From: Alphaproteobacteria bacterium
Lineage (GTDB): Bacteria; Pseudomonadota; Alphaproteobacteria; RF32; CAG-239
DNA: 42,254 bases
Assembly (NCBI GenBank): GCA_017543835.1
Contig: JAFYFJ010000001.1
Span: 1 to 42,254, forward strand
Direction: 5' to 3'
Every line of letters starts with the position of its first letter. The first letter of the stretch is position 1. A model generated the notes under the pieces. That model did no database searches. It was not told the DNA's origin and saw only the letters and a list, made by a program, of their open reading frames with translations. The translations under genes and the position numbers were made by a program. This document shows positions 3,090-38,631 of this stretch, in pieces.

Positions 3090-3171
3090 ATCTCTTTCTT
3101 TCTCATAGACAAACTTGATTTGAATATATACAATGCAAATATTATCGCAACAAAAAAGAAGAATAATCAAC

Positions 3172-4035
3172 ATGCGCCCGAGTATTTTATATCCGCTTTT
3201 TGCCCCGATTGATACGCTGACCGGCATCGGCAAGCGCTATTGCACGTTGATGAGTAACCTGTGCGGCGGCAAGGTGCTCGACTTGTTGTGGCATTTTCCG
3301 AGCGGATTTGTGGACCGGCGTTGTAATGTGCCGCTGTGCCGCGCCGCCGACGGCAAAATCTGGACCGGAAAAGTGCGCGTGGTAGAACACGCGGTGCCAA
3401 AAACCAAAAAGCAACCGTATCGCATTGCGGTTGAAGACAATACCGACCAGATGACTTTGGTGTTTTTCAAAGTGTTCGGTGACAGTATTGTCAAGCAATT
3501 TCCGGTGGGGGCGGAAAGGATTATCAGCGGCAAAATCGAAATTTTTAACGGCTTGTTGCAGATGAGCCACCCCGATTATGTGGTTGACCCTGCCAAACCG
3601 GAGTTGATGCCGCTGATTGAAACGGTATATCCGCTGACTGCCGGCGTCACCAACAAAATGCTTAATCGGCAAATTATGCAAGCGCTCGAGCGGGTGCCGG
3701 ATTTGCCGGAGTGGCTCGACGAGCGCTATGTGGCGCAACAAAATTGGCCGCGCTTCAAAGAGGCGGTGTGGACGGTGCATCATCCGCAAACCCTTGCCGA
3801 TATTGAGCCGAATGCACCGGCGCGGCGACGTTTGGCTTATGACGAATTACTCGCCAACCAGCTTTCACTCGCGATTGTGCGCGGTCGGCTCAAAAAGCAA
3901 AAAGGCCGCTCGCTTGCGGGTAACGGTGCACTCAAAGAAAAACTGCGCGCGGTGTTGCCGTTTGCGCTCACCGCCGCTCAAGAGCGCGTGATTGCAGAAA
4001 TCGAGAGCGATTTGTTCAGTGATTATCGAATGTAA
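3172..4035 (+). CDS. recG: ATP-dependent DNA helicase RecG, N-terminal (wedge/OB) fragment, ended by an in-frame TAA at 4033-4035
   Basis: The ORF is 3133-4035. The likely start is Met14 (MRPSILYPLFAPIDTLTGIGKRY, a typical RecG N-terminus). It is in the same frame as ORF 4039-5253, and the TAA falls one residue before the RLLQGDVGSGKT Walker A motif. Confidence 0.85.
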   Translation: MRPSILYPLFAPIDTLTGIGKRYCTLMSNLCGGKVLDLLWHFPSGFVDRRCNVPLCRAADGKIWTGKVRVVEHAVPKTKKQPYRIAVEDNTDQMTLVFFKVFGDSIVKQFPVGAERIISGKIEIFNGLLQMSHPDYVVDPAKPELMPLIETVYPLTAGVTNKMLNRQIMQALERVPDLPEWLDERYVAQQNWPRFKEAVWTVHHPQTLADIEPNAPARRRLAYDELLANQLSLAIVRGRLKKQKGRSLAGNGALKEKLRAVLPFALTAAQERVIAEIESDLFSDYRM

Positions 4036-4038
4036 CGT

Positions 4039-5253
4039 TTGTTGCAAGGTGATGTCGGCAGCGGCAAAACGATTGTGGCGCTGATGACAATGCTCAACGC
4101 GGTCGAGTGCGGGTGTCAGGCGGCAATTATGGCACCGACCGAGATTTTGGCTCAGCAACACGCCGAAACAATTTCCGAGCTGTGTGCCAAAATCGGTGTC
4201 AAAACGGCACTGCTGACGAGCAATATCAAGGGCAAAGCGCGCAAAACTCTTTTGGAAGAACTGGCGGCCGGAAATATCGATATCCTTATCGGAACGCACG
4301 CCCTGTTCACCGAAGATGTGACGTTCAAAGATTTGGCTTATGCGATTGTGGACGAGCAACACCGTTTCGGCGTCAAACAGCGACTGAGTTTGTCGGAAAA
4401 AGGTAATCTCTGTGATGTGCTTGTGATGACGGCAACGCCTATTCCGCGCACGCTTGTGTTGACGCAATTCGGCGATATGGAATATTCTAAAATTGATGAA
4501 CTTCCGGCGGGGCGCAAACCGGTGCGGACAACCGTTATGCCGTTAAGCAAAATCAACAATGTGGTCGAGGCGTTGGCGCGCAAATTATCAACCGGCACAC
4601 AGGCCTATTGGGTGTGTCCGTTGGTGGAGGAGTCCGAAAAAATCGACCTTTCCGCCGCTACCGAGCGCTTTGAGAGTTTGCAAAAAATCTTCGGTAATGC
4701 CGTCGGACTGGTGCACGGTAAAATGAAGGAAGCCGAGAAAAATGCGGTGATGGAAGACTTTAAGCAAGGTAAACTCAAACTCCTTGTTTCGACCACCGTG
4801 ATTGAAGTCGGCGTCAATGTGCCGAATGCGACGATTATGGTGGTGGAACACGCCGAGCGTTTCGGTTTGGCGCAGTTGCATCAGTTGCGCGGGCGGATTA
4901 AGCGCGGCTCGGAGCAAGGAAGCTGTATTTTGATGTATGGCTATCCGCTCAGTGCCGTTTCGCACGAGCGGCTGAACACAATGAAGGCGACCGAGGACGG
5001 CTTTTTAATTGCCGAAGAAGATTTGAAGTTGCGCGGCGGCGGCGAAGTTTTGGGCACACGACAGTCGGGATTTAATAATTTTAAGGTGGCGGATTTGAGC
5101 GTGCACGGCGATTTACTCTTAACGGCGAGCAAAGATGCGGCACTTTTATTGCGGCAAGACCCGAACTTGCAATCGGCGCGCGGCCAAGCCCTCCGCACCC
5201 TACTCTATCTGTTTGAACAAGACGAAATGATACGCACCTACAAAGCGGGATAA
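4039..5253 (+). CDS. recG: RecG helicase core, C-terminal fragment (same frame as 3172-4035; a real independent start is doubtful)
   Basis: It carries LQGDVGSGKT, VDEQHRFGV (DEQH box), MTATPIPRT, QLHQLRGRIKRG and the C-terminal TRG-like LKLRGGGEVLGTRQSG. The track start is a TTG immediately after the stop. Confidence 0.85.
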   Translation: MLQGDVGSGKTIVALMTMLNAVECGCQAAIMAPTEILAQQHAETISELCAKIGVKTALLTSNIKGKARKTLLEELAAGNIDILIGTHALFTEDVTFKDLAYAIVDEQHRFGVKQRLSLSEKGNLCDVLVMTATPIPRTLVLTQFGDMEYSKIDELPAGRKPVRTTVMPLSKINNVVEALARKLSTGTQAYWVCPLVEESEKIDLSAATERFESLQKIFGNAVGLVHGKMKEAEKNAVMEDFKQGKLKLLVSTTVIEVGVNVPNATIMVVEHAERFGLAQLHQLRGRIKRGSEQGSCILMYGYPLSAVSHERLNTMKATEDGFLIAEEDLKLRGGGEVLGTRQSGFNNFKVADLSVHGDLLLTASKDAALLLRQDPNLQSARGQALRTLLYLFEQDEMIRTYKAG

Positions 5254-5321: not shown

Positions 5322-5379
5322 AAATCATCCATCACGTCTTAAATTTGCGGTTTGCAAATTTAAGGCGTGCCCCGAAGGG
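5322..5379 (+). repeat. Hairpin repeat element copy E1 (short form, + orientation)
   Basis: The sequence is AAATCATCCATCAC-GTCTTAAATTTGC-GGTTT-GCAAATTTAAGGC-GTGCCCCGAAGGG. Its first 52 nt are identical to 7048-7099. The family is defined in the findings. Confidence 0.85.
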
Positions 5380-5471: not shown

Positions 5472-5685
5472 GAACACGAATGCGAGAGATTGCATTTGGG
5501 GCGTGGAAACCTCTTTATAGGCGTTTGTGCAAAGCGTTAATTTTGCGCGCCGTGATGGTTATATATAGTATGACCGGAGGGCGGCAAAATAAGCCGTTTT
5601 ACATAACATTCATATAGATACTAGTGATATATGCCTGTTTAGGCAAATATGTCGCGCTATTCCTATAAATAGTTTCCAACGTCCG

Positions 5686-5711
5686 GTCGCTTATTCTTAA
5701 GCGACTTTTTT
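5686..5711 (+). terminator. Rho-independent terminator
   Basis: The hairpin is GTCGCTTA-TTCT-TAAGCGAC, followed by TTTTTT. Confidence 0.6.
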
Positions 5712-7043: not shown

Positions 7044-7047
7044 TAAC

Positions 7048-7290
7048 AAATCATCCATCACGTCTTAAATTTGCGGTTTGCAAATTTAAGGCGTGCCCCA
7101 AAGGGTAAAATCCGCACCCTCGATGTTCGTCAGCGCCGCCGAACTTCCCCCATTCTTGCGCGCTACCGCACCTCCCCTTCTTCCGCCCTGCCGCACATCT
7201 TACCCTATTCCGCGTCGTGCACAGACCGGTCACAGCCGCCGGCATCGCCTTCTTTGCCGCCAACGCGCGTCGTGCGTTTGCACCTCGGCC
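7048..7290 (+). repeat. Hairpin repeat element copy E2 (long form: hairpin module plus GC-rich module, + orientation)
   Basis: 7048-7099 is identical to E1. The following GC-rich approximately 190 nt aligns, with indels, to the reverse complement of 17215-17348. Shared strings include GGGTAAA(A)TCCGC, CGCCGAACTTCCCC and CCGCCGGCA. Confidence 0.75.
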
Positions 7291-7568
7291 ACATAATCCC
7301 CGCCCGCACTTATACTCGGCATTATGCGTAATAAGTTCGTCATCTGAATACGGCTTTTCGCCTGATGTTTCCAACTCATAACCTTGCCCTTTGCGTATAA
7401 AATACTATATTATTAAGTGTATTCTTTTATATCAACTTCTAAAAGTAATTATAGCAAGCTATTCTTAATGTCAAGCGAAAAAACGCTTGATTTATGCCGC
7501 ACTTTCATCTAAAGTTACTCTCGCAAATCAATTATGAAGATATTTTTACAACTCTAAACTTACAGCTT

Positions 7569-7814
7569 ATGATAACAAATTGCAGAGAAGCGTTGTTGTT
7601 TTTGGTGCAAAAACAGCAAGGTCAATGGAACGAGCTACAATCTCAGATTGAGCCGAAAATGCTCGATTGGTTCAAAACCATGGGGTATATCCGTCACGGC
7701 AAGGATAAGTGGCAGATTACTTCCGCCGGCGTGAAGCAGTCGTTGTTCTATCGCGAGCCGACGCCCGAAGAGCGCGAGCAAGGTCTTTTGATGTATCAGT
7801 TAGGTATACTTTAA
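7569..7814 (+). CDS. Small hypothetical protein, possibly winged-helix-like (81 aa from the ATG at 7569; the ORF is open from 7494)
   Basis: The ATG at 7569 sits in the island-specific GCTTATG context. The sequence is LLFLVQKQQGQWNELQSQI...WFKTMGYIRHGKDKWQITSAG. The function call is weak. Confidence 0.45.
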   Translation: MITNCREALLFLVQKQQGQWNELQSQIEPKMLDWFKTMGYIRHGKDKWQITSAGVKQSLFYREPTPEEREQGLLMYQLGIL

Positions 7815-7825
7815 AATTTTGGCTT

Positions 7826-8131
7826 ATGGATAAAATTGGTGTAACTGAGGTTCGGAAGATTCTGTTAGAAGTGCTCAGCGAATATACCGGACTTTGTGAA
7901 GGTTTGGCAAGTATGGAGAGTATACCCGATGAGAAGTTGCTGAAGACAAATCTTCGTGACGAGTTTGGTATGGACTCGATGGACTTCGAAAGTATGTTTG
8001 ACGAGCTTTATGACCTCTACGGCATCGTCGTTGATGTGCATAATCCGCTGACTCAATTTTCTTTTAAGGAAGAGCCGACTGTGGAGAATTTTATCGAAAT
8101 GGTCAATTATTGCCTGAGTATTGAGGCATAA
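7826..8131 (+). CDS. Acyl-carrier-protein-like protein (101 aa)
   Basis: LRDEFGMDSMDFESMFDELYDLYGIVV matches the ACP phosphopantetheine-site pattern (D-S-hydrophobic-D ... E-x-x-F-G-I). The ATG at 7826 is in the frame of track ORF 7709-8131, and the upstream part of that ORF overlaps the previous gene. Confidence 0.7.
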   Translation: MDKIGVTEVRKILLEVLSEYTGLCEGLASMESIPDEKLLKTNLRDEFGMDSMDFESMFDELYDLYGIVVDVHNPLTQFSFKEEPTVENFIEMVNYCLSIEA

Positions 8132-8137
8132 ATTCTG

Positions 8138-8178
8138 AAAATCCCCCGCCGCCACCGTGCCGCGAGGGATTTTTTTTG
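8138..8178 (+). terminator. Rho-independent terminator T1a (48-nt block identical to 10138-10185)
   Basis: The sequence is AAAATCCCCCGCCGCCACCGTGCCGCGAGGGATTTTTTTT. Confidence 0.75.
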
Positions 8179-8179
8179 T

Positions 8180-8218
8180 TTGACTTTTCCAAAATTTTCG
8201 TCTATAAATCTATTTCAG
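8180..8218 (+). promoter_or_regulatory. Junction promoter module P1
   Basis: TTGACT lies at 8180-8185 directly after the terminator T-run, and TATAAA lies at 8213-8218. It is homologous to P2 and P3. Confidence 0.45.
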
Positions 8219-8264
8219 AATGTAATTATCAAGTTAATCTTTATATTAATTATTTTATTTGCTT

Positions 8265-8651
8265 ATGACAACAGTAATAATTATCGGTATCGTAGGCTTG
8301 TGCATTGTTGCCTTGCACTACGCGTTTGGTTTCCACTATTATTATATTAGTGAGAAACAGTCGTATCACTCAAAAGAAGAGTGGTGGTATAAGAGATGCA
8401 TGGTTGCCGGCGCTTGTTGGAACTTCGCTCTGTTTGTTTTTACGTTTATGTCTTTTATCTTACTTGACCATGCCAACGATGTGACTGTTTCACAAGGAAT
8501 TATCTGCTTTCTGCTGGTAATATGTGAAATTTTTGCCATCGTCGTCGGCTGGGGATTCTGGGCTATCGGAAGAATAGCGCTCGGTTTTGTAGAGGTGTTT
8601 AGTGATGCATTCACTATTCTCTTCTCTAAGGGACAATACGAAAAATGTTGA
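8265..8651 (+). CDS. Small integral membrane protein (128 aa), hypothetical
   Basis: It has four hydrophobic segments. The ATG at 8265 is in the GCTTATG context, and the track start at 8259 is a TTG. Confidence 0.6.
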   Translation: MTTVIIIGIVGLCIVALHYAFGFHYYYISEKQSYHSKEEWWYKRCMVAGACWNFALFVFTFMSFILLDHANDVTVSQGIICFLLVICEIFAIVVGWGFWAIGRIALGFVEVFSDAFTILFSKGQYEKC

Positions 8652-8680
8652 GTAAGTAAAATCAACGATTTAGATTAAGA

Positions 8681-8717
8681 AAATCCGCAGAACCTTTGCG
8701 TTCCGCGGATTTTTTTT
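8681..8717 (+). terminator. Rho-independent terminator T2
   Basis: The sequence is AAATCCGCAGAAC-CTTTGC-GTTCCGCGGATTTTTTTT. It is homologous to the terminator at 10894-10934. Confidence 0.75.
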
Positions 8718-8719
8718 AT

Positions 8720-8769
8720 TTGACTCTGATATGTTTTTTATTTAAGGTAGCGGTTAGAAAATCTATAAT
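8720..8769 (+). promoter_or_regulatory. Junction promoter module P2
   Basis: The module reads TTGACT(8720-8725)-N17-TAAGGT, with a downstream TATAAT at 8764-8769. About 55 nt are nearly identical to 10180-10229. Confidence 0.55.
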
Positions 8770-8803
8770 TATAACAACATGTATCATTAAAATATAATTG
8801 CGT

Positions 8804-9313
8804 ATGGAAAAGACTTCTTTAGCTAAGTACATCGTCGGTTTGGCATTGTTTATCATAACCGGTATTCTTGCCGCCGCGACCATCTATTTTGACGTGTTTA
8901 CGCCGTTTTTTAAGGGGATTCAGACACCTGACGATTATGCTTTTATAGCCGTAATCACGTTGCTTTTCGGGCCATGGGTTGTTTTGTTTCTGTCTCCGGT
9001 GTTTGTCACTATTTGGGATTATATCGGAGAGAAATACGGCAAAAAACAACATCTGTTAAATGTCTGTTGGTTGGTCTTGTGTTGCGCATTTGCTTATTTT
9101 GCGGGTAATTTTCCGAGTGTTTTGATAAAAATCGGTAAACTTCCCGCCATAAGTGAATTATCTCTTCAGTTATATCGCTTGGTGATTATCCTTATAACAT
9201 TGTTTTTGTTATGTTGGCTTTGTCACTTGGTTGATTATTTTACAAACACCTTTTGGAATCTCAAAACACCAATGAGAAAACCACGAGGTGAAAACATTGT
9301 GAGTGCAAACTAA
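8804..9313 (+). CDS. Integral membrane protein (169 aa), hypothetical
   Basis: It has 4-5 hydrophobic segments. The ATG at 8804 is in the GCGTATG context. Confidence 0.6.
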   Translation: MEKTSLAKYIVGLALFIITGILAAATIYFDVFTPFFKGIQTPDDYAFIAVITLLFGPWVVLFLSPVFVTIWDYIGEKYGKKQHLLNVCWLVLCCAFAYFAGNFPSVLIKIGKLPAISELSLQLYRLVIILITLFLLCWLCHLVDYFTNTFWNLKTPMRKPRGENIVSAN

Positions 9314-9326
9314 ATAATAAACGCGT

Positions 9327-9770
9327 ATGAAAAAGTTAGTCTTTGCGTTAATTGCCGCGCTCAGCGTAGCATTAACTGGTTGCTCTGCTTTTGAAAGCGA
9401 GCCGATTGAACCGAATATCATCGGCACCGGCAATCTGCAATATGAGGCAAAAAGCGGCACTTGGTTTGTGGTTGTTGACTCAACTCAATACACCGTTGCC
9501 ACTGTAACTATTCTTGACAACAATCCGCATTCATATGGCAAAACGCAGAATGTTGAGCCGGTTGAGGGAATGTTGGTTACCGTGTTCACTTCACCGCGTA
9601 TGAATGGTATTCAGGCGGTTACCGGTAGGCAATCAATTGAGCAGATTGAGGAATTGTATCACACCGACGAAACTGGAGTTGTTGTTGTTTTTGGGCTCTT
9701 ACTGCTGTGTGTCTTAGGTATTGCTATACCAAACACCAAAAAAGTTCCTGTGGTGAATGCCGATGTATAA
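9327..9770 (+). CDS. Lipoprotein with a C-terminal TM segment (147 aa), hypothetical
   Basis: MKKLVFALIAALSVALTGC carries an L-T-G-C lipobox, and the C-terminal segment is VVVVFGLLLLCVLGIAIP. The start context is GCGTATG. Confidence 0.65.
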   Translation: MKKLVFALIAALSVALTGCSAFESEPIEPNIIGTGNLQYEAKSGTWFVVVDSTQYTVATVTILDNNPHSYGKTQNVEPVEGMLVTVFTSPRMNGIQAVTGRQSIEQIEELYHTDETGVVVVFGLLLLCVLGIAIPNTKKVPVVNADV

Positions 9771-9788
9771 CGAAAACCCTGAAAGCGT

Positions 9789-10133
9789 ATGGAAAAACAG
9801 AAATTGACTTTCCGCCAAGAGGTTGCTTATGCGCATTGGTCAGCTAAGATTGCATTTGACTTTCCGCACGTCGGATATGGCCTTATGCTTATTGCGATGG
9901 CAATTTATTTCGGGCTGGCATATTGGTTCTTCGAGCCGGAAATCCGATTTTGGGAACATTTGTCCGGTTCGCACGCTCTGGGCAAGGCCTACTTCTATCG
10001 CTTGGGTGGTGTTCTTCTGATAGTGGCTTTGAGTTACCTCACGGTGTATATCATCTACTTCATTCATGCATTGTTTGATAAGGATGAGGTTTGCCGCAAG
10101 CACTTCTTGAAGAATCATTATCGCAAACACTAA
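9789..10133 (+). CDS. Small membrane protein (114 aa), hypothetical
   Basis: It has two or three hydrophobic segments and the GCGTATG start context. It is the last gene of a three-gene unit. Confidence 0.6.
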   Translation: MEKQKLTFRQEVAYAHWSAKIAFDFPHVGYGLMLIAMAIYFGLAYWFFEPEIRFWEHLSGSHALGKAYFYRLGGVLLIVALSYLTVYIIYFIHALFDKDEVCRKHFLKNHYRKH

Positions 10134-10137
10134 ACAA

Positions 10138-10178
10138 AAAATCCCCCGCCGCCACCGTGCCGCGAGGGATTTTTTTTG
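10138..10178 (+). terminator. Rho-independent terminator T1b (copy of 8138-8178)
   Basis: A 48-nt string is identical to 8138-8185, exactly 2000 bp downstream of the first copy. Confidence 0.75.
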
Positions 10179-10179
10179 T

Positions 10180-10227
10180 TTGACTCTGATGTATTTTTTA
10201 TTTATGGTGCGTGTAGAAATTTATAAT
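10180..10227 (+). promoter_or_regulatory. Junction promoter module P3
   Basis: TTGACT lies at 10180-10185 and TATAAT at 10222-10227. The sequence is nearly identical to P2. Confidence 0.55.
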
Positions 10228-10269
10228 TATACCAAAAAAATTATTTACAAAACAAAATATTATTAGCGT

Positions 10270-10890
10270 ATGGAACAAATTATCGATTCAAAAACTTCAA
10301 CAAAGAAGAAGTCTGCCCAAAAGCATTGGTTTACGCCAAAAGTTGCGGCTCTGGTCAAGAAAATTTCAACAGAAAAATGGTTCGTCAGCGAAGTCATTTA
10401 TCCCAAAGAAGTCCCCGGATGCGAGATTTTCGATTATAACGGTTGTATGCGGCTGTATCATAATAAAGCTCGATTTTTTGCAATGAATGATGAGCGGCTG
10501 AATACCGAAATCGGCAAATATTGCAACCTGAATATCGATTTTGTCAGCGCCGAAAAAATCATTATCCGACAACCCGACGAAACGGCCTTTGATAAATGGA
10601 ATAACGGTGCGCAATTTGAGTTGACTTCTCTATGGCCCGGACGACAGCTGGTTGTTGCCACAAACCACACAACTCATCAGCTTATGGCACTTGCGCCGAT
10701 TTTTGTTGTATCTACTCCGGAATTTCGTTCTACCAGTGACCTTGGAAGATTCTATGAGTTTGAAAAGGAGTTTAAACTCTGCCGGAAGCATTTGGAAACA
10801 CGACAAATCAAGGCCTTACATCCGGAAACGCCGGACTTTTTGCAAAACTCGTATAATTTGCTGATTTGGTTGAAAAATCATTGTTATTGA
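10270..10890 (+). CDS. Hypothetical cytoplasmic protein (206 aa)
   Basis: It is a complete ORF with the GCGTATG start context. It has its own promoter module upstream and a terminator downstream. I recognise no motif. Confidence 0.6.
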   Translation: MEQIIDSKTSTKKKSAQKHWFTPKVAALVKKISTEKWFVSEVIYPKEVPGCEIFDYNGCMRLYHNKARFFAMNDERLNTEIGKYCNLNIDFVSAEKIIIRQPDETAFDKWNNGAQFELTSLWPGRQLVVATNHTTHQLMALAPIFVVSTPEFRSTSDLGRFYEFEKEFKLCRKHLETRQIKALHPETPDFLQNSYNLLIWLKNHCY

Positions 10891-10893
10891 ACT

Positions 10894-10934
10894 AAAAAAA
10901 ATCCGTCGAACTTAGCGTTTCGGCGGATTTTTTT
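10894..10934. terminator. Bidirectional terminator between the cassette array and the convergent U32 gene
   Basis: The sequence is AAAAAAA-ATCCGTCGAAC-TTAGC-GTTTCGGCGGAT-TTTTTT, with A- and T-runs on both sides. Confidence 0.7.
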
Positions 10935-10945
10935 GTTGCACGCAT

Positions 10946-13276: not shown

Positions 13277-13302
13277 GAGGCGATAACAAATCCGCCGCAA
13301 AC

Positions 13303-13338
13303 AAAAAAGCCGTCGGATTTTACTCCGACAGCTTTTTT
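13303..13338. terminator. Terminator downstream of 13350-14675
   Basis: The hairpin is AGCCGTCGGA-TTTTAC-TCCGACAGCT, flanked by A- and T-runs. Confidence 0.65.
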
Positions 13339-13349
13339 ATGAATTAGGG

Positions 13350-14675
13350 TCAGGCATCTTCCGGCGGGTCAAGACGATAGCCGCGTTTCTTACATTCTTC
13401 CGCAACTTCCGTGTCGAGCTGATAAGCGCTCAGCAACCAACATTGTGAAATGTAGAATTGCAGAGCTCCCTCATTTTTCGGCTCAAGCAGACGTTTGTGC
13501 AGCGCCTTCGGCAGAGGATAATGAGAGATGTATTCAAGCGCCAAATCATTGGAATCCGGACAATCAAACATCTTATCCAACTTCTCCTCGGTCAATTCCT
13601 GACGGTCATAAATGCGCCTGTGCAGGTCTTTTTCAACCTCTTTAATAATCTCCTGCAAGGTCGGACGCAGATAGTCGTGCTTGTCCAAGATGAAGTCAAT
13701 CTTGTCGTTCAGAATACCAAACTGCGGCTCATTAACGAAAATCATCTCAGCAAAGTCTTTGTCTTTATACCACAGCATATGCATAATGGCTCTTGCGTCA
13801 AGACGGTGACCGTTCCGATGGAACATCTGATATTGCAAAGCGCTCATTTCCTTTTGAGCGGCAACGCTGATTTTCTTCTTCGAGGCGCAAAACTCTGCCC
13901 ATTCGTCGATTTTTTCAATCGTATCCATGTTAAACAGGCGCTTGGTCGTGAGTTTCTGCAAATAGACATCTTCGCTGTCGACAACGGCTTGTTTGAGGGC
14001 TTCAGAGGCCTTGTCACAGGTCGTGACGTTTTCCATCATCTCCCGGCTGATACCGCATCTTTCGATGTATTCGCACAGAATACGACCGACAACCCCCGAC
14101 GCATACTTTTCGCTCTCGGCGCATGCCTTTTCAATCAGAATTTCGGCCTGCGTTTTAGGTAATGTGCCGGCTTCCATATATCCTCTGATTAAGGCACGCA
14201 CCTTTTGCTCAGAAACGGTCAAGTCCAGCAAAGCCGAGAACAAGTCGTTGCGTTCCTTCATCCCCTTGGCCAGACACTCGAAAGGAAAATAACCGTTGTT
14301 TTTTACCAACCTTGCCCAAGCTTCAGGACTAAGCTTCCAAAGCGCTTCTTCTGAGCTGTTGACGAGCCGGAAATAAGTAATTTGTTCATCAATGGTGTAG
14401 TTTTGGAGCAAATCCGGTGTAATCCACCATTTTGCCCACTTAAACGGCCATTTCAGCGCCAACCGAGTGTAAAGCTTGCAGACAGTTTTGCCGCAATAGT
14501 CCTTGGTATGGACCATAGCTGCCGCAAACGCCGGAGCAACCAAGTTGATAACCAACAACACGAGAGGATTGAAAAGCACCACAAACCAGAAAATTGCACC
14601 CGTGTAAAAAACAATGTAAAGACACATGGTGGAGACAGGCACCCTTTGGGATGCACTCAAATTTTTGGAAGACAT
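13350..14675 (-). CDS. Membrane-anchored orphan protein (441 aa), paralog of 30746-31903
   Basis: It has an N-terminal double TM (MCLYIVFYTGAIFWFVVLFNPLVLLVINLVAPAFAAAMV) and a large helical domain. WAEFCASKKKISVAAQKEMSALQYQMFHRNGHRLD aligns to WTNFCKSKKDICRAAQKKMGHRQYQIFAETGHKLE in the paralog. Confidence 0.75.
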   Translation of the reverse strand: MSSKNLSASQRVPVSTMCLYIVFYTGAIFWFVVLFNPLVLLVINLVAPAFAAAMVHTKDYCGKTVCKLYTRLALKWPFKWAKWWITPDLLQNYTIDEQITYFRLVNSSEEALWKLSPEAWARLVKNNGYFPFECLAKGMKERNDLFSALLDLTVSEQKVRALIRGYMEAGTLPKTQAEILIEKACAESEKYASGVVGRILCEYIERCGISREMMENVTTCDKASEALKQAVVDSEDVYLQKLTTKRLFNMDTIEKIDEWAEFCASKKKISVAAQKEMSALQYQMFHRNGHRLDARAIMHMLWYKDKDFAEMIFVNEPQFGILNDKIDFILDKHDYLRPTLQEIIKEVEKDLHRRIYDRQELTEEKLDKMFDCPDSNDLALEYISHYPLPKALHKRLLEPKNEGALQFYISQCWLLSAYQLDTEVAEECKKRGYRLDPPEDA

Positions 14676-14941: not shown

Positions 14942-14960
14942 GTGATTATTTTTAATGCTT

Positions 14961-15008
14961 TATGTAATTGCGGTCGGCAAATCGTAGCCGTGCCCCGAAA
15001 GGTTACCC
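14961..15008 (+). repeat. Hairpin repeat element copy E3 (degenerate, + orientation)
   Basis: TATGTAATTGCGGTCGGCAAATCGTAGCCGTGCCCCGAAAGGTTACCC retains the GTGCCCC-GAAA-GG module and a decayed stem. Confidence 0.55.
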
Positions 15009-17075: not shown

Positions 17076-17150
17076 ATTTTTAGTAATACACTGTTTCAAA
17101 ATAAGTGTCTGCAAAATATACCGGTAATGGCTATTGCGACAGATAAGATT

Positions 17151-17205
17151 TTACCCTTTTGGGCACGCCTTAAATTATTGGCAAAATGCTGAAATGTTTA
17201 TGGTT
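17151..17205 (-). repeat. Hairpin repeat element copy E5 (- orientation, degenerate)
   Basis: In TTACCCTTTTGGGCACGCCTTAAATTATTGGCAAAATGCTG the left arm is conserved and the right arm has decayed. Confidence 0.55.
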
Positions 17206-17214
17206 TAGAAACAG

Positions 17215-17406
17215 AGCGTATTTGAACAATATATCTGCCACATTTTGCGCTTGCGAAAAATGTGCCGGCGGTAGCCGTTACGGCGGGAAAAAAGTGCTAC
17301 GGCGCGGAAAAAGGGGAAGTTCGGCGACGCGAATAACAAACTGAGCGGATTTACCCTTCGGGGCACGCCTACAATTTGCGGACAGCAAATTGTAGGCGTG
17401 ATGGAT
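17215..17406 (-). repeat. Hairpin repeat element copy E6 (long form, - orientation)
   Basis: The core is ATTTACCCTTCGGGG-CACGCCTACAATTTGC-GGACA-GCAAATTGTAGGCGTG-ATGGAT, with a perfect 16-bp stem. It is preceded by a GC-rich module homologous to 7100-7290 in inverted orientation. It is followed by a 33-nt direct duplication (17401-17433 and 17442-17474). Confidence 0.8.
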
Positions 17407-17499
17407 AAAAGATTATAAAAGTGACCGTTTTTCTCAACGGTATGGATAAATGGTTATAAAAGTGAGCATTTTTCGGTAATTTTGTTATCAAAAAATCTT

Positions 17500-18501
17500 T
17501 TATACCAAGCCGGTGCGGCACAGAGCGGCATAAACCGGCTTATCTAATCCGAGCTGTTTAATCAGCACGGACGGGCGGCTTTCCACTTGTAAATCGCGCT
17601 CGCCGCAAGCGTTATCTTTGCGCCATTTCAGCACCGCGCTCGGCAGTTCTGCCTTGCCGATACACGACGAAAGATACACCCACACCTCGTCATTATCCGC
17701 CAGATTTTCCACCGCCAAACGCCGCGCGTATAAGTTCAGCGTTAAATCGGCTTTGGTCGCATCCTTGGTCCACGGCGAACCGCCGCCGACGGCACTCGCG
17801 GTCGAATAAAAATCCACCGCCAGTTTACGCCCCGTAATGCCGCAATCGGCAATACTCGAGTGCGTGGTGTAATTCCCTGCCCCGTTGATGATGATTTGCG
17901 CCGGTTGTTCACCCAAAACTTCGGCAATAAAGCTGCTCAAATCTTCCGGCTCAAGCATCGGCACCGCCGCCACCGCCGTCAAGATTCGGCCGCTGTCATC
18001 AAGCGTGATTTGCGTTTTAATATCAAGCCCTAAGTTATTGCTTTGACGCGCTTTTTTATAAATTTCACGATTAAGTTTGCGTGCCAAATAAAGCTCGCGA
18101 TTCAGATTTTCCGCGCCTTTGCAGGCATACCCGACAAACACGCCTTGGTCGCCCCACCCGTCATTATCGACGCCCTGTGCAATTTCACACGACTGCGTGC
18201 CGACAAGGTTGATGACTTCCACTTTGCGCACATCAATCGCCTTATCTCCCCAAATTTTTGCATAGCGCTCGTCATAACCGATTTCGCGCAATGCGGCTTT
18301 TACATACTGCTCAAATGGCGCGTTTTGCACCTTAGAGCATATTTCTCCGCCCAAAACGACAGTATTACCCTTAACCATCACTTCGACGGCATAACGCGTT
18401 TTTGCGTCTTGCTCGATAAAGCGGTCTAAAATGTAGCTGGTAATGTAATCGGCAATTTTATCAGGGTGTCCCAAAGACACATATTCTGCTGTTTTTATCA
18501 T
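17500..18501 (-). CDS. metK: S-adenosylmethionine synthetase-like protein, short divergent form (333 aa)
   Basis: MetK-like motifs are present: GHPDKIAD, GWGDQGVFVGY, LDIKTQI, ADCGITGRK and GGGSPWTKDATKADLT (canonically GGGAFSGKDPSKVDRS). It is about 50-60 aa shorter than canonical bacterial MetK. Confidence 0.75.
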   Translation of the reverse strand: MIKTAEYVSLGHPDKIADYITSYILDRFIEQDAKTRYAVEVMVKGNTVVLGGEICSKVQNAPFEQYVKAALREIGYDERYAKIWGDKAIDVRKVEVINLVGTQSCEIAQGVDNDGWGDQGVFVGYACKGAENLNRELYLARKLNREIYKKARQSNNLGLDIKTQITLDDSGRILTAVAAVPMLEPEDLSSFIAEVLGEQPAQIIINGAGNYTTHSSIADCGITGRKLAVDFYSTASAVGGGSPWTKDATKADLTLNLYARRLAVENLADNDEVWVYLSSCIGKAELPSAVLKWRKDNACGERDLQVESRPSVLIKQLGLDKPVYAALCRTGLV

Positions 18502-34805: not shown

Positions 34806-35219
34806 TTACTTTTTCAGCTCGGCGCGAATAGCGGTTGTCGAGCGCACCGGCAACAAATCTTTCGGAATACGGTTACTGACGACATAACGCACACCCAAAC
34901 CCTCGACAAACGCACGTTTTTCGGCACTGTCGCCATCGGTATTCACAAAGAAAATATCCGGCTTGATTTGCTTGATTTCTTCAGCAAAATCGAGCTTACC
35001 GCTGCCTTGAGCCACAAATGCCTGATGCACAAAACGTATGGCCGAAACCATATACAGACGCTCGTCTTCGTTATAGAGCGTCGGGCGATGTTTAAGCTCT
35101 TCCACCGTTTTATCCGAACCGATGGAAACATACAAATCACCGTATTGCGAGGCCTCCTCAAAAAAGCGGATATGCCCGCTGTGCAACACATCAAAACAAC
35201 CCGATACAAATACTTTCAT
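34806..35219 (-). CDS. Cytidylyl/adenylyltransferase-family protein (TagD/RfaE-domain-II-like, 137 aa)
   Basis: VFVSGCFDVLHSGHIRFF is the HxGH nucleotidyltransferase motif. It is the last gene of the glycan operon, 1 nt after the GT8 stop. Confidence 0.85.
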   Translation of the reverse strand: MKVFVSGCFDVLHSGHIRFFEEASQYGDLYVSIGSDKTVEELKHRPTLYNEDERLYMVSAIRFVHQAFVAQGSGKLDFAEEIKQIKPDIFFVNTDGDSAEKRAFVEGLGVRYVVSNRIPKDLLPVRSTTAIRAELKK

Positions 35220-35220
35220 C

Positions 35221-36132
35221 TTATTTATCCTCTATACTTAACAGTGGAATAACTCCGAAAAGTTTATATTTTGTCTGATTCGTCTTTTTATTAAGTTCTG
35301 CCATCACTTTAGCCAACACATCCTGAAACTCCTGATAAAACAGAATAAAGCGGGTATTCCAAGGCTTTGCCGCACCGGCATAATGGATAATAAACGGATT
35401 TTGAAAACCCTCAATCATTTCCTGATTGCCTTCTGTTTTGCTGTGAGTATGAACGGTAACACCATATTTGAAATGCAGTTTTTTGTAATTATTGGCAAAC
35501 ACCATATTAAATGCATCCAAATCTGCCGCAACCAACTTGTCGTGATATTGTATAGCTTTCTCAACCAGCTTGGCGGTAATATCATATTTTCGCCAATAAG
35601 CGCAATTAATAATGATATTGGCCGACTGAAAATATAAGTGACTTTCATCAATCGAAAATGTTTTCTTGCGTAACCGATGATTAAATATCCCCTCATGTTC
35701 TTTGCCGATTTCTTCGACGGTTGCCGCAATTCCGTAATTACCTAAATCAATGGCATAATACTTGGCAATATCCCCCATAAATATGCAATCCGCATCGGTA
35801 TAAATAACTTTGTCATATTTCTTGCATATTTCCGGAATAAAAAAGCGTGAATATGCCGACGTGCTGAAATGAAAAAGATTGGGAAAACGTTGCAAATCAT
35901 ATCGTTTCATATCAACAAAAGACAGCTTACAATTTTCAAAACGCTCCATCGCCTTTTTGATTTGCTTTTTATGCTCGGATGTTACGCCATCAGCCAAAAG
36001 AAAAAAGTGAATGAAAGATTTTGTTTTTTCCAAAATGGAATATATACAAACCGTCGTCGGTATTGTATAATTATCGTTCAGTGCCAAAACAACCGGAATC
36101 ACTTTTTTTTTTGTTTTTTTGCCGAATATCAT
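35221..36132 (-). CDS. Glycosyltransferase family 8 (LgtC/RfaJ-like), with the C-terminal KLFGVIPLLSIEDK tail
   Basis: IPVVLALNDNYTIPTTVCIYSI, YTDADCIFMGD (DxD) and HYAGAAKPW are GT8 motifs. Confidence 0.88.
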   Translation of the reverse strand: MIFGKKTKKKVIPVVLALNDNYTIPTTVCIYSILEKTKSFIHFFLLADGVTSEHKKQIKKAMERFENCKLSFVDMKRYDLQRFPNLFHFSTSAYSRFFIPEICKKYDKVIYTDADCIFMGDIAKYYAIDLGNYGIAATVEEIGKEHEGIFNHRLRKKTFSIDESHLYFQSANIIINCAYWRKYDITAKLVEKAIQYHDKLVAADLDAFNMVFANNYKKLHFKYGVTVHTHSKTEGNQEMIEGFQNPFIIHYAGAAKPWNTRFILFYQEFQDVLAKVMAELNKKTNQTKYKLFGVIPLLSIEDK

Positions 36133-36160
36133 TTTATAGTCCCTGCTTTATGGTATTATT

Positions 36161-36994
36161 TCAGTTATCATCTATACTTAATAACGGAATAAAACCAAAA
36201 AGTCTATAAGATTTTTTCTGTGAGAAATGGATATGTTTCCACTCATTTTGTTCGGCTCGTTTCTGGCGCGCCAATTTTTGGTGCCTCTCAAAATCGTCCA
36301 ATTCCTGCCGCGTATAATAAATATTGTTAAATCGGCTATGCTCTATTTTCCGCAACTGTTCATTTTTCGGATTTGCCGTTGCACCATCGAGCCAAAAACG
36401 TCCGACCAATGTATGAAGCATTTTGACCTTCTCGCCGGCGCTAATCAGGCGTAAATTCATTTCCGTGTCGGCCGAAATTTTGTAGCTTTCATCATACAGA
36501 CCGTATTTTTCAAACAAGGCTCGACGATAAAAAGCCGACTGATGCGCCATCGAATATTTCAAAAAAGTCATCTTATCAATCGGACTTTGATGGCGCCAAA
36601 CATACGCCAACTTTTTGTCCGAATTAAAACGTTCTTCTTCGGCTTGCAAAATGTTTTCGGTATATGTGTTATTCTTGAAAACTTTTTCAAGCGCATCACA
36701 AATCGCATATTCGTCGCCGCCGTTCATAAAATTAAGCCACTCGCCGTGCGCCAGTTTAATTCCCTTATTCATGGCATTGTATATGCCCTTGTCTTTTTCG
36801 GAAATCAGAATATTGATGCGGTCGGCATATTCTTTGAGCACATCAACTGTGCCGTCGGTGGAACCGCCGTCAACCACAATCCACTCAAAATCCTGCCAAC
36901 TCTGATTAACGATGCTCTTGCAGGTGCGCTCGATTGTGTCTTTGATATTGTAACTGACTGTAATAATACTCAATGTCGGATTTTGTTTTTTCAT
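36161..36994 (-). CDS. Glycosyltransferase family 2, with the C-terminal RLFGFIPLLSIDDN tail
   Basis: LSIITVSYNIKDTIERTCKSIVNQSWQDFEWIVVDGGSTDGT is a GT2 N-terminal pattern. The ATG at 36994 has the SD GAGGA 8 nt upstream. The track TTG start is 37009. Confidence 0.88.
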   Translation of the reverse strand: MKKQNPTLSIITVSYNIKDTIERTCKSIVNQSWQDFEWIVVDGGSTDGTVDVLKEYADRINILISEKDKGIYNAMNKGIKLAHGEWLNFMNGGDEYAICDALEKVFKNNTYTENILQAEEERFNSDKKLAYVWRHQSPIDKMTFLKYSMAHQSAFYRRALFEKYGLYDESYKISADTEMNLRLISAGEKVKMLHTLVGRFWLDGATANPKNEQLRKIEHSRFNNIYYTRQELDDFERHQKLARQKRAEQNEWKHIHFSQKKSYRLFGFIPLLSIDDN

Positions 36995-36995
36995 C

Positions 36996-37970
36996 TTACT
37001 TATCCTCAATACTCAAGAACGGAATAAAGCCGAAAAGTTTATAGATTTTAATACTGCGGGTCGGAGCTTTCAAACTGCGGGTCGGAGCTTTCAAAACGGG
37101 TTGAACCGTCTTAGTTACGCCCTTTCTGAAAGGGTTTTGCAAATTATAAAAATGTTTCCACAAAACAGCATTCATCAGATATACCCGTTGGTCCGAATGA
37201 TATTTTTTTATATCCAGTTTAAATGTGGGCGAGAAGAGCCGTTGGTCCTTGCTGCTGTAATGTGCCCCTTCTTCACCGATATTGGATATTAAATTTTTGG
37301 TCGGAAAAATTGTCAGGCCTTTCTGCTCGGCAATACAAAAATTCCATGGGAAATACCAACTGTTGATTTCGTTTCTTTTAACTCTTTGCAGAATATAATT
37401 CCAATATTGTTTTATGTTGAAAAATGATGAGATATTCTCAACAACATCATCATTGATATCCGAAACATCCAAGCGAAATTTCTGCCATCTGTCTGCCCAA
37501 GTTGCCCAGCCCCAACAATGTGAAACCGAGGCAAATTCATAAGCATACGGGCTTTCAACTTGTGCCACAGGCAAATAACCGACGATACTGAATACCTTTT
37601 TATCGTTTTTATATTTATCGAGCAATTTTTCGCAAAATGTAAAAAACGACGGTGAAGGCAGACAATCGTCTTCCAAAATTATGCCTTCCGGCTCGTTTTC
37701 CAAAAACCAGGTTATCGCGCCCGAAACACCTTTACCGCAACCGCCGGAATTAACCTCCAGAAAACGCGTTTTCACTACACAATCCCAATCAATGTGACTC
37801 AAAAGATAATCGCGCACTTTCTGCACTTTTTCTTTTTCACCCTCTTTATCCGGACGCGGACCGTCGGACGCAATATACAACCGCGGCGGTTTAGCTTTGG
37901 CAACCGCGGCAAACACATCTTTTAAGCAATCCAACCGATTAAATGTCGGCAGAAGTATGGCCGTTTTCAT
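36996..37970 (-). CDS. Nucleotide-diphospho-sugar glycosyltransferase, GnT-I (GT13)-like, with the C-terminal KLFGFIPFLSIEDK tail
   Basis: ILLPTFNRLDCLKDV and GIILEDDCLPSPSFF match the E-D-D plus SP-x-FF pattern of GnT-I-type enzymes, from memory. The SD GGAGA lies 5 nt before the ATG at 37970. Confidence 0.72.
   Translation of the reverse strand: MKTAILLPTFNRLDCLKDVFAAVAKAKPPRLYIASDGPRPDKEGEKEKVQKVRDYLLSHIDWDCVVKTRFLEVNSGGCGKGVSGAITWFLENEPEGIILEDDCLPSPSFFTFCEKLLDKYKNDKKVFSIVGYLPVAQVESPYAYEFASVSHCWGWATWADRWQKFRLDVSDINDDVVENISSFFNIKQYWNYILQRVKRNEINSWYFPWNFCIAEQKGLTIFPTKNLISNIGEEGAHYSSKDQRLFSPTFKLDIKKYHSDQRVYLMNAVLWKHFYNLQNPFRKGVTKTVQPVLKAPTRSLKAPTRSIKIYKLFGFIPFLSIEDK
37053..37094. repeat. Perfect 21-bp tandem duplication (2 units) inside the GT gene 36996-37970
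   Basis: ACTGCGGGTCGGAGCTTTCAA occurs at 37053-37073 and again at 37074-37094. It is in frame and encodes LKAPTRS twice, immediately upstream of the tail motif. Confidence 0.95.
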
Positions 37971-38631
37971 CAGCATCTCCGTATTTTTTAACAAATTCTT
38001 CTACATCAAAGAACATTTTTTCAACTTGCCGCAACTTGTCATCCGGCCAATTCCACCATTGAATTTTTTGCATTTTTTCAATGACATGCGGCGGAAAACG
38101 ATACTTGATGATATGTGCCGGCACCCCGACGGCAATGGCATACGGCGGAATATCTTTGTTGACAACCGCACCGGCACCGATAACGGCACCGTCGCCGATT
38201 GTGACACCGTCTAAAATGCAAACATTCATGCCTATAAAAACATCATTGCCGATAACGATCGGTTTACGTTCTTCTATTTTATTCTCGGCGCAGAAAGTCA
38301 TCCCGTTTTGTTTGCCTGTCGAATAAAAGCACGGAGCTGTCGATATGCCGTTTGTCGGATGAATGCCCCAACCGCAAATTAAGTTAGGGCCGATGGAACA
38401 GAACTTCCCTATTTTTGTCATAGATATATGTGAATTACTTGAAACATAAGTTCCGCGCCCGATTTCAACCTGTTTCCCTATTTGATACGGCTTATACATT
38501 TTCACTTCAGGGAAAGACTTCTCTTCCGACTTAGCATTACCCGAATAAGGATAATTAGGTTCGGTCGTCTTTTCCTTAATCGAGAACAGCGGTATAAAAC
38601 CAAACAACTTCCAGCGTATTTCTTTTTTCAT
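37939..38631 (-). CDS. Hexapeptide-repeat (XAT/Vat/CatB-like) acetyltransferase with the N-terminal WKLFGFIPLFSIKEK motif
   Basis: IGKFCSIGPNL...HPTNGISTAPCFY...IGNDVFIGMNVCILDGVTIGDGAVIGAGAVV...WWNWPDDKL is an XAT signature. The ATG at 38631 lies 2 nt after the stop of the small ORF. The track ORF extends upstream to 38775. Confidence 0.83.
   Translation of the reverse strand: MKKEIRWKLFGFIPLFSIKEKTTEPNYPYSGNAKSEEKSFPEVKMYKPYQIGKQVEIGRGTYVSSNSHISMTKIGKFCSIGPNLICGWGIHPTNGISTAPCFYSTGKQNGMTFCAENKIEERKPIVIGNDVFIGMNVCILDGVTIGDGAVIGAGAVVNKDIPPYAIAVGVPAHIIKYRFPPHVIEKMQKIQWWNWPDDKLRQVEKMFFDVEEFVKKYGDADENGHTSADI

Follow-up and report, generated by a model that had tools for sequence, protein, structure and literature searches.

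Seven small genes between recG and a U32 peptidase gene

We analysed a stretch of 42,254 nucleotides (nt) of an uncultured alphaproteobacterium (assembly GCA_017543835.1, contig JAFYFJ010000001.1, positions 1 to 42,254 of the forward strand), hereafter the window, and within it an array of small genes at 7400-10940. The window is ordinary chromosomal DNA of a ruminant-gut bacterium. Pfam scans identified the housekeeping genes recG, U32 peptidase, metK, mtnN, mutL, pgi, M16 peptidases, lspA and corA, and the U32 protein matched only metagenome-assembled genomes (MAGs) of uncultured Alphaproteobacteria from rumen and gut, with 84% identity to the top match. The array consists of seven plus-strand open reading frames (ORFs) that make up four units, with three junctions and a closing terminator. 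A first-pass annotation had proposed that unrelated genes are separated here by recycled terminator-plus-promoter junctions, a layout that it likened to exchangeable cassettes, and the units, junctions and terminators that it listed were all present. The genes are given below (aa, amino acids; TM, transmembrane).

c1 (family W), 7569-7814, plus strand: 81-aa soluble protein, small and, by its modelled fold, winged-helix-like; always accompanied by c2
c2 (family P), 7826-8131, plus strand: 101-aa soluble protein with a GMDSMD motif; start corrected to 7826
c3, 8265-8651, plus strand: 128-aa membrane protein with 3-4 TM segments
c4, 8804-9313, plus strand: 169-aa membrane protein with about 4 TM segments, which opens a three-gene unit
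c4-c5 linker, 9314-9326, plus strand: ATAATAAACGCGT
c5, 9327-9770, plus strand: 147-aa lipoprotein with lipobox LTGC and a C-terminal TM anchor
c6, 9789-10133, plus strand: 114-aa membrane protein with 2 TM segments
c7, 10270-10890, plus strand: 206-aa soluble protein

The seven cargo proteins showed no homology to one another, in agreement with the first-pass annotation, and its description of c4, c5 and c6 as a membrane protein/lipoprotein/membrane protein trio and of c7 as a soluble 206-aa protein also held; c3, which it had given four TM segments, has three to four. Its pairing of a winged-helix-like protein with an acyl carrier protein (ACP)-like one stood in its first half. The best PDB folds for the AlphaFold2 model of c1 (predicted local distance difference test score, pLDDT, 93.7) were MarR-family proteins, AspA and Sso10a (prob ~1, E = 5e-3 to 6e-2), all of which are winged-helix DNA binders, suggesting that c1 is winged-helix-like at the level of its fold. 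The match of c2 to Pfam PP-binding was below the cut-off (E = 0.013), and its likeness to ACP appears weak. The model of c7 (pLDDT 82) had no PDB or BFVD neighbour at E <= 1e-3.

Pfam scans of these seven proteins and of ten proteins from the arrays of related bacteria described below gave nothing above the cut-off, and the only toxin- or immunity-related Pfam match among the 17 was Ntox46 (E = 0.15). Profiles of PHROGs and PADLOC gave no significant match to the cargo (best E-values 0.002-0.1). Very weak PHROG matches linked c5 to Cor (E = 0.019, over the signal peptide only) and family D, which is weakly ACP-like as c2 is, to a phage ACP (E = 0.0095). Homologue searches among 5.8 billion clusters returned 25 for c1, 22 for c7 and 53 for family B (MERTDEAIALF...), a frequent member of the other arrays; all of these clusters were nameless and all belonged to this lineage.

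Predicted terminators and promoter modules at the junctions

The junctions and terminators of the array are as follows, L numbers here and below designating the contigs and loci used for comparison.

J0, 7375-7568, plus strand: degenerate junction or leader before c1, in which GTAATTATAGCAAG resembles the TATAATTATAAC box; ends GCTT before ATG
T1a, 8138-8185, plus strand: predicted bidirectional intrinsic terminator with core stem 8143-8168 and T-run 8170-8177, then G and TTTGACT
J1, 8171-8264, plus strand: variant of the putative promoter and leader, with TTGACT at 8180-8185, a 17-nt spacer and TATAAA; GCTT before ATG
T2, 8677-8717, plus strand: predicted intrinsic terminator in the frame AAAATCCG..CGGATTTTTTTT; the same type is found in L096
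J2, 8707-8803, plus strand: canonical module with T-run, -35 element TTTGACTC at 8720-8725 and candidate -10 element TTTTTTATTTAAGGT at 8743-8748
T1b, 10138-10185, plus strand: second copy of the 48-nt T1 block
J3, 10167-10269, plus strand: canonical module with TTGACT at 10180-10185, TATGGT at 10203-10208 and TATAAT at 10222-10227; GCGT end
T4, 10895-10934, no strand assigned: predicted bidirectional terminator common to c7 and the convergent U32 peptidase gene (stop codon 10946)

The T1 block, AAAATCCCCCGCCGCCACCGTGCCGCGAGGGATTTTTTTTGTTTGACT, occurs as a pair that is 100% identical over 48 nt, and none of 100 shuffles gave such a pair. The exact 2000-bp spacing of the two copies, to which the first-pass annotation had drawn attention, has no meaning beyond their bracketing of 8186-10185 (c3 and c4-c5-c6). 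T1-type terminators also come after P, c5 or c6 homologues in L084, L011, L007, L085 and L092. T2 and T4, which had been described as homologous, were 71% identical over 49 nt, with inner stems that differ by compensating changes; this homology is present and weak, because it is largely that of the shared outer frame AAAATCCG...CGGATTTTTTT. As no promoter follows T4, it marks the end of the array.

The four terminators folded at -18 to -20 kcal/mol (z = -3.9 to -5.6) with an A-run on one side and a T-run on the other. Single folds were -17.9 kcal/mol for T1 (z = -3.9), -19.3 for T2 (z = -5.6) and -19.6 for T4 (z = -5.2), and all three have a GC-rich hairpin directly before 7-8 U. Because the hairpins lie between an A-run and a T-run, they are predicted to be bidirectional intrinsic terminators. 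A promoter and terminator scan of the whole region found 18 terminator-like sites against 14.9 expected, a count that as a statistic is uninformative.

TTTGACT begins straight after each T-run, so that every terminator leads directly into the next promoter module. The homology between J2 (8707-8809) and J3 (10167-10275) amounted to 78% identity over 112 nt (self-blastn, E = 3e-15), and it begins in the T-run and takes in the start codon and the codon after it, beyond the limits first claimed for it. Downstream of the candidate -10 element, J2 continues with the palindrome TATAATTATA, which includes TATAAT at 8764-8769, and then with an AT-rich leader ending in GCGT; its profile matches had nhmmer E-values of 1e-20 to 1e-30. 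The copy at 8180-8230 that had been called diverged corresponds to J1, which at 8167-8208 is 64% identical to J2. J1 is a genuine stable variant, since its promoter together with c3 is 95.7% identical to the metagenome contig L088. J3 is chimeric as a whole junction: in the alignment, its T1 hairpin and T-run up to TTTGACT are identical to those of J1, and from there it continues with a J2-type promoter and leader. At the degenerate J0, 7045-7896 is kept at 94% in the strain contig L113, and the c1 homologue in L116 is preceded by a recognisable module.

TTGACT-17-TATGGT was scored as promoter-like in the promoter scan. From these sequence features, we infer that the module fires as a sigma-70-type promoter and that the hairpins terminate transcription. 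Two other roles for the junctions were considered and rejected. A structured RNA was rejected on the grounds that Rfam at gathering thresholds gave only tRNA, that a permissive scan gave sub-threshold matches on the terminators (His_leader, 29 bits vs 49), and that the leaders folded worse than shuffled controls (z = +0.8 and +1.8, i.e. less structured). Phase variation via the T-run was rejected because the promoter spacer does not vary and the run is situated upstream of the -35 element.

A start signal without a Shine-Dalgarno site

In all seven cargo genes, the ATG is immediately preceded by GC[GT]T, and a Shine-Dalgarno motif is missing. Among about 27 host genes, none had GCKT before the start and at least ten had clear AGGAG-type sites. 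The plus strand of the 3-kb array stretch holds 10 of the 26 GCKTATG sites in the window. In arrays elsewhere, GCKT or the variant AAAGT precedes the ATG of most pool genes, operon-internal genes included. Identical linkers, such as TAAATAATAAACGCGT-ATG, are found after c4 before three different genes; the genes that come next after c4 or its homologues and the c4-c5 linker are B in L011, c5 in the window itself and, in L091, a gene for 72 aa. This uniform GCKT-ATG context without a Shine-Dalgarno site is an additional oddity, one of translation initiation.

Distribution of the module in related bacteria

A scan pattern taken from J2 and J3, TTTGACT-N8-TTTTTTATTTAWGGT, matched 18 metagenome contigs, 16 of which had the complete module. 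Pattern and profile searches together gave 39 copies (24 unique) on more than 25 metagenome and MAG contigs, so that the module is not confined to one locus; such confinement, together with an identical cargo order in all relatives, is what the first-pass annotation would have taken as a sign of simple local duplication. The 24 unique copies are conserved from GGATTTTTTTT to the ATG, with conserved blocks in the order GGATTTTTTTTG, TTTGACTC, N7, TTTTTTATTTAAGGT, about 8 nt, AGAAAATCTATAATTATAAC, AATTATTAA and AATATTATTGCGTATG. The hairpin before the module is variable, with at least six stem types, and its outer arms are kept. Directly downstream of the 39 copies lie members of 15 non-homologous protein families. 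Two or three modules were present per contig in L082, L085, L087, L090, L091, L093, L095 and L105.

The tie between the module and these families was exclusive. The module profile found nothing in the other 38 kb of the window and nothing in ~1.5 Mb of sequence surrounding U32 in 80 related species except the arrays L011 and L007, and no module copy was found to adjoin a housekeeping gene. Conserved boundaries with variable cargo, the central proposal of the first-pass annotation, are thus supported by the 39 copies and 15 families and by the varying orders and sites described below.

A separate element was observed at some junctions. It resembles a miniature inverted-repeat transposable element (MITE), is 200-300 nt long with terminal inverted repeats GTCATCCCTC...GAGGRATGAC, and occurs in L011 (~3940-4110), in L100 (9597-9905) and, upstream of modules, in L091 and L095. 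It sits in the T-run between terminator and TTTGACT, where the T-run is apparently duplicated, or beside T1, and it seems to target these junctions.

Cargo pool, array orders and mosaic breakpoints

Clustering of the ORFs of array contigs gave the recurrent families c5, B, W-P, c4, A, F, D, E, c3, c6 and S, which we refer to as the pool. The commonest is c5 (ten loci), and family B has eight copies among array contigs. The order of units differs between arrays, as listed here with slashes between units.

Window: W P / c3 / c4 c5 c6 / c7
L011: A c4 B c5
L085: F / B c6 / c5 D'
L091: A x D / c4 y
L100: p446 x W P z / B c5
L112: p441-like / x W P z c7

The same families appear in different company. 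W-P pairs were found in L084, L099, L100-103, L112 and L116, and c2 homologues of 48-80% identity adjoin W in other arrays. A protein 97% identical to c3 is encoded in L088, and c4 homologues (75-83% identity) in L011, L091 and L105-108. The c5 protein is 95-97% identical to those of L096 and L100-103, where B is the upstream gene. Homologues of c6 (~60% identity) are present in L007 and L085, with a T1-type terminator next in both, and c7 homologues lie at other chromosomal sites, by lonC/clpP in L109-111, and also in L112. The neighbours of the arrays vary accordingly and include U32, ccrM-like methyltransferase/HPr, ftsY/miaB, proS and lonC/clpP genes; at least two arrays, L007 and L112, belong to one genome, MAG-R073.

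Comparison with individual contigs revealed that the array is a mosaic. The segment 8171-8656 (J1 promoter and c3), which matches L088 as given above, has unrelated sequence on both flanks there; 8711-9331 (J2, c4 and the linker, from the T-run to the next ATG) was 88% identical to L091; and the homology of c5 to L096 (96.6%) starts at 9323, between GCGT and ATG. The homology blocks therefore end in a T-run (8171, 8711), just past a stop codon (8656) or at the step from GCKT to ATG (9323, 9331). Against a single relative, L100, c5 was 95% identical and W-P 78.5%. J2 had 92.5% identity with the L085 and L092 modules, which stand before a different gene, B, and 78% with J3.

Differences by whole units were also seen between near-identical strains. 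L104 and L100 have flanks that are 99.7% and 97.9% identical and differ by a whole multi-gene unit, which refutes a cargo order fixed among relatives: L100 carries W-P, a 117-aa gene, a terminator and the MITE (1.3 kb) where L104 has a 29-aa ORF and T1, and the break on the right-hand side coincides with the module's first base. Likewise, L112 has W-P-(117 aa)-c7 without the c3/c4/c5/c6 block, and in the window a 2000-bp block of c3 and c4-c5-c6 stands between P and c7, bracketed by the identical T1 copies. In other samples, contigs of the strain that the window comes from break off at 8197 and at 9576, and most family-B contigs are shorter than 3 kb.

A further observation concerns the unrelated pool proteins of L087, L090, L085 and L091, which end alike (-DDLPF, -NDLPL, -NILLPF and -TFEPF); a shared C-terminal signal may be present.

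Chromosomal setting of the array

Many relatives share the gene order p555-p592-mtnN-metK-U32, and in them recG converges on U32. Only 0-40 nt separate recG from U32 in L014, L017, L021, L028, L032 and L035, and inserts of 0.8-3.7 kb, different from that of the window, occupy the gap in L015, L016, L024 and L025. In the window, 5.7 kb separates recG (end 5253) from U32 (end 10946) and 4.2 kb separates U32 from metK. Because recG and U32 abut in the six relatives, the 5.7 kb represents inserted DNA. The GC content of DNA inserted between recG and U32 is 31-44%, compared with ~50% in upstream core genes. The small gap in relatives and the low GC indicate that the array is accessory DNA in a rearrangement-prone spot.

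Related accessory DNA is also present on the far side of the U32 gene from the array:

p441, 13350-14675, minus strand: 441-aa protein with N-terminal TM segments

This protein is 53% identical to the first gene product of the L112 array and has identities of 32% to L100 and 29% to L116, and its terminator (13297-13342) is 95.6% identical to the terminator after the L116/L117 homologue. Given this kinship to pool proteins, the accessory pool flanks the U32 gene on both sides.

A single in-frame TAA at 4033-4035, just short of the Walker A motif RLLQGDVGSGKT, splits recG into ORFs for the wedge domain (3133-4035) and the helicase (4039-5253), which share a frame; in relatives recG is intact. 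The interrupted gene is either a pseudogene or the product of a sequencing error. The S-adenosylmethionine (SAM) synthetase at 17500-18501 (minus strand) is short (333 aa) and matched the three MetK Pfam domains weakly (E = 4e-22, 5e-13 and 3e-7). It is kept at 63-83% identity in relatives, which points to a divergent MetK in this lineage.

Other repeats in the window

A family of short hairpin repeats, designated E elements, was found at five positions:

5322-5379, 7048-7105 and 14945-15002, plus strand: hairpins of ~58 nt with a 16-nt stem and a 5-nt loop
17349-17416 and 17150-17176, minus strand: members of the same repeat family

Their flanks, AAATCATCYATCA and GCCCCGAAGGGTAAA, are conserved, and the stems show covariation from copy to copy. 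Between E1 and E2, which are 98% identical, lies a low-GC islet of 1.67 kb with genes for a lipoprotein of 68 aa, a SHOCT-domain protein and a DUF2085 protein. In the strain contig L113 (94% identical) there is only one E element, its stem is of another sequence, and the islet is apparently missing (74 nt upstream covered), so that insertion of the islet appears to have duplicated the E site. No E element was found in ~115 other loci. We considered the E hairpins as boundaries of the array and rejected this role, as they are confined to contigs of this species and flank a different islet.

Directly downstream of the metK stop codon, by the inverted E element, two 33-nt direct repeats lie at 17401-17474 (88% identical, 41 nt apart). 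Another direct repeat, of 55 nt and 76-85% identity, at 35214-35268, 36154-36208 and 36989-37043, spans the start codon and upstream sequence of three successive minus-strand genes, 35221-36132, 36161-37009 and 36996-37994; it may be another reused 5' region or reflect tandem paralogues. Two tandem 80-nt copies at 41358-41518 (90% identical, 81 nt apart) are probably a repeat inside a coding region. At 5572-5696 (plus strand), there was a sub-threshold Rfam match to sRNA-Xcc1 (27 bits vs 53, E = 0.14) with a terminator-like hairpin at its end (5685-5706), and 5626-5692 is 88% conserved in L034. This may be a small RNA or just a leader.

Probable shuffling of units at the junctions and alternative explanations

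We think it likely that the region is an array of self-contained expression units, drawn from a lineage-specific accessory pool, in which the junctions serve as homology for shuffling. Each unit would begin with a sigma-70-type promoter, consisting of the T-run as an UP-like tract, TTGACT, 17 nt and TAAGGT or TATGGT, with a second perfect TATAAT in TATAATTATA. An unstructured, AT-rich leader without a Shine-Dalgarno site would follow, ending in GC[GT]T-ATG, and then a body of one to five small ORFs, mostly for membrane proteins and lipoproteins, whose 6-15-nt linkers likewise end in GCKT-ATG. The unit would close with a bidirectional intrinsic terminator in the frame AAAATCC...GGATTTTTTTT. Because the T-run of one terminator abuts the next promoter, units are separated by a conserved composite junction of ~110-150 nt. 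Such a junction would insulate and drive each unit, and it would also provide portable homology for RecA-type insertion, deletion and swapping of units, both within the chromosome and between strains. Possible routes include unequal crossing-over, Campbell-type insertion of excised circles and allelic replacement after DNA transfer, and the outcome would be strain-specific arrays at several chromosomal sites. The T1 pair around c3 and c4-c5-c6, between P and c7, would be the footprint of such recombination. The cargo is probably a strain-variable set of envelope proteins, possibly controlled by the winged-helix protein c1; the composition of the pool and its variability between strains would fit functions in envelope variation or exclusion.

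Several points weigh against this explanation. Promoter and terminator activity are predictions, and recombination at the junctions is deduced from mosaic breakpoints; neither a recombinase nor a recombination intermediate was seen. The material covered 42 kb of this genome and fragments of relatives. Many breakpoints fall at short gene-to-gene linkers (10-25 nt) rather than at the promoter module, and since such linkers are short for RecA exchange, a dedicated mechanism or selection on rare illegitimate events is possible. Units are sometimes operons of two to five genes, and a core subset, A-c4-B-S-c5, keeps its order in several species (L011, L105-108), so that part of what we call an array may be one functional operon. 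The T1 copies could each be native to the gene upstream and have been homogenised by gene conversion, rather than having arisen by an insertion. The analogy to immunity or effector islands that had been offered by the first-pass annotation received no support, as the cargo had no Pfam, PHROG or PADLOC matches and no toxin or recombinase is nearby.

A more far-reaching proposal is recombinase-independent shuffling of chromosomal cassettes as a cellular counterpart of the phage elements discussed below. The portable module and GCKT-ATG would let units excise, circularise, pass from strain to strain and re-insert at any other module, giving hypervariable envelope repertoires that may be co-regulated by a cassette-borne winged-helix protein binding the TATAATTATA palindrome. 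We offer this only tentatively; it is a serious possibility, and the balance tips somewhat against it.

Among the alternatives, a dedicated site-specific cassette system, integron-like or akin to recombinase-associated acquired interbacterial defence (rAID) arrays, survives best, and we consider it unlikely. In such a system, an unlinked recombinase would act on the step from GCKT to ATG or on the AAAATCC/GGATTTT outer arms. This would account for the very sharp breakpoints that recur at GCKT-ATG and the T-run and for exchange at linkers too short for efficient RecA action, and the hairpins, with conserved outer arms and variable, compensated inner stems, are superficially attC-like. However, no integrase or recombinase was found in the window or beside the ~12 arrays with Pfam-annotated neighbours. 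Pfam scans of the window and inspection of the hairpins bore out the first-pass statement that no recombinase, toxin or attC-type site is visible: the hairpins are canonical GC-rich stems followed by a T-run, as expected of terminators, with no R'/R'' boxes. In addition, GCKT is found before internal genes of conserved operons too, as would be expected of a translation signal.

An origin in phage DNA is more doubtful still. The array would then be a cryptic prophage remnant or a captured moron or hyperplastic region of the type that contains promoter early stem-loop elements (PeSLs), with membrane proteins and lipoproteins of the superinfection-exclusion type. The promoter-gene-terminator layout, the low GC and the small ORFan genes for membrane proteins and lipoproteins are a close formal match to PeSL regions (PMC2839356), and the very weak PHROG matches of c5 to Cor and of family D to phage ACP point the same way. 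On the other hand, no phage structural, replication or integrase genes were found in the window or beside any array, and housekeeping genes lie on both sides of the arrays. Pattern scans of IMG/VR gave no match for the module or T1, protein scans of IMG/VR gave none for c5 or B, and blastn searches against GenBank phages and PLSDB plasmids gave none.

It is very improbable that the module is a generic genome-wide repeat, such as a repetitive extragenic palindromic (REP), MITE or Correia-like element, or the organism's standard strong promoter, found here by chance. Short AT-rich promoter-like repeats are common in intergenic DNA, and a separate MITE seems to target these very junctions; the module itself, however, lacks terminal inverted repeats and target duplications, and without exception it stops right at the start codon of a gene of the restricted pool. 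Neither the window nor the ~1.5 Mb from 80 relatives had a copy beside a housekeeping gene or outside arrays, which also disposes of the generic terminator or REP family that the first-pass annotation had entertained, and host genes use Shine-Dalgarno sites and other promoters. Least credible of all is local tandem duplication of one promoter and terminator followed by divergence, with no tie to variation in gene content: the two identical T1 copies and two similar modules within 2 kb would suit it, but J2 is nearer to modules on other contigs (92.5%) than to J3 (78%), 15 unrelated families stand behind the module on more than 25 contigs, and near-identical strains carry different cargo.

Comparison with known systems

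The array is not a member of the PeSL, rAID-1 or integron families, and PeSLs are its nearest described counterpart. PeSLs are conserved terminator/sigma-70-promoter composites of ~100 nt between ORFans in the hyperplastic regions of T4-type phages (Arbiol et al. 2010, PMC2839356; Comeau et al. 2014, PMC4122927); they bound indels between close relatives, and homologous recombination with mini-circles has been proposed as the mechanism (PMC2839356). The likeness extends to a composite of ~100 nt with a stem-loop terminator, a sigma-70-like promoter and an AT-rich upstream tract that reaches the start codon. In both cases the motif flanks small lineage-restricted ORFans in plastic regions and bounds indels, chimeric junctions occur, and homologous recombination, with putative excision and re-insertion of circles, is proposed. 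In contrast to PeSLs, which are early promoters of T4-type phages, the array is chromosomal, lies between housekeeping genes in a setting with recG, U32, metK, mutL and pgi, and has no viral matches. Its stem-loop always precedes the promoter, there is no Shine-Dalgarno site, the module ends in GCKT-ATG, its units often hold several genes, and there is no sequence similarity between the module and PeSLs.

The rAID-1 arrays of Bacteroidales are defined by an adjacent XerD-family recombinase and by cargo homologous to immunity genes of the type VI secretion system (Ross et al. 2019, bioRxiv 10.1101/471110). They share with the array head-to-tail small, unrelated, strain-variable genes, skewed GC, repetitive intergenic sequence and a host among gut bacteria. 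However, Pfam scans of window ORFs and array neighbours found no XerD-family recombinase, and the 17 cargo proteins had no homology to immunity genes at the Pfam cut-off. Integrons likewise have tandem cassettes of unrelated small genes and hairpin 3' ends with conserved outer arms and variable centres. The array differs from them in having no IntI or integrase domain in the window and no attI, and each of its units has its own predicted promoter and intrinsic terminator, whereas integron cassettes are mostly promoterless. We rejected a reading of the 3' hairpins as attC sites, as they are perfect GC-rich stems followed by T8, with no GTTRRRY core and no R'/R'' boxes.

Phage morons are autonomous promoter-ORF-terminator units that occur as single insertions between prophage genes. 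The array units resemble them in this autonomy and in a base composition unlike that of their surroundings; morons, however, share no single recycled junction, and the window has no prophage. The minimal mobile elements of Neisseria are alternative cassettes at one site that are swapped through homologous flanking core genes. They have in common with the array alternative cassettes and homologous recombination with no dedicated recombinase, but the array cassettes carry the homology themselves, in the junction module, and occur at many sites. The Neisseria elements are mentioned in PMC3787668.

Plasticity of bacterial cassettes is usually ascribed to integrons, to recombinase-driven islands or to exchange via flanking core genes. 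In the present case, each exchanged unit seems to bring along its own regulatory junction, which doubles as recombination homology, a principle so far documented for T4-type phages. If so, this mode of modular evolution would also operate in cellular genomes, and it would explain the fragmentation of these loci in rumen metagenome assemblies. The 110-nt module would then provide a handle for cataloguing uncharacterised strain-variable envelope proteins in the abundant, uncultured Alphaproteobacteria of the ruminant and human gut.

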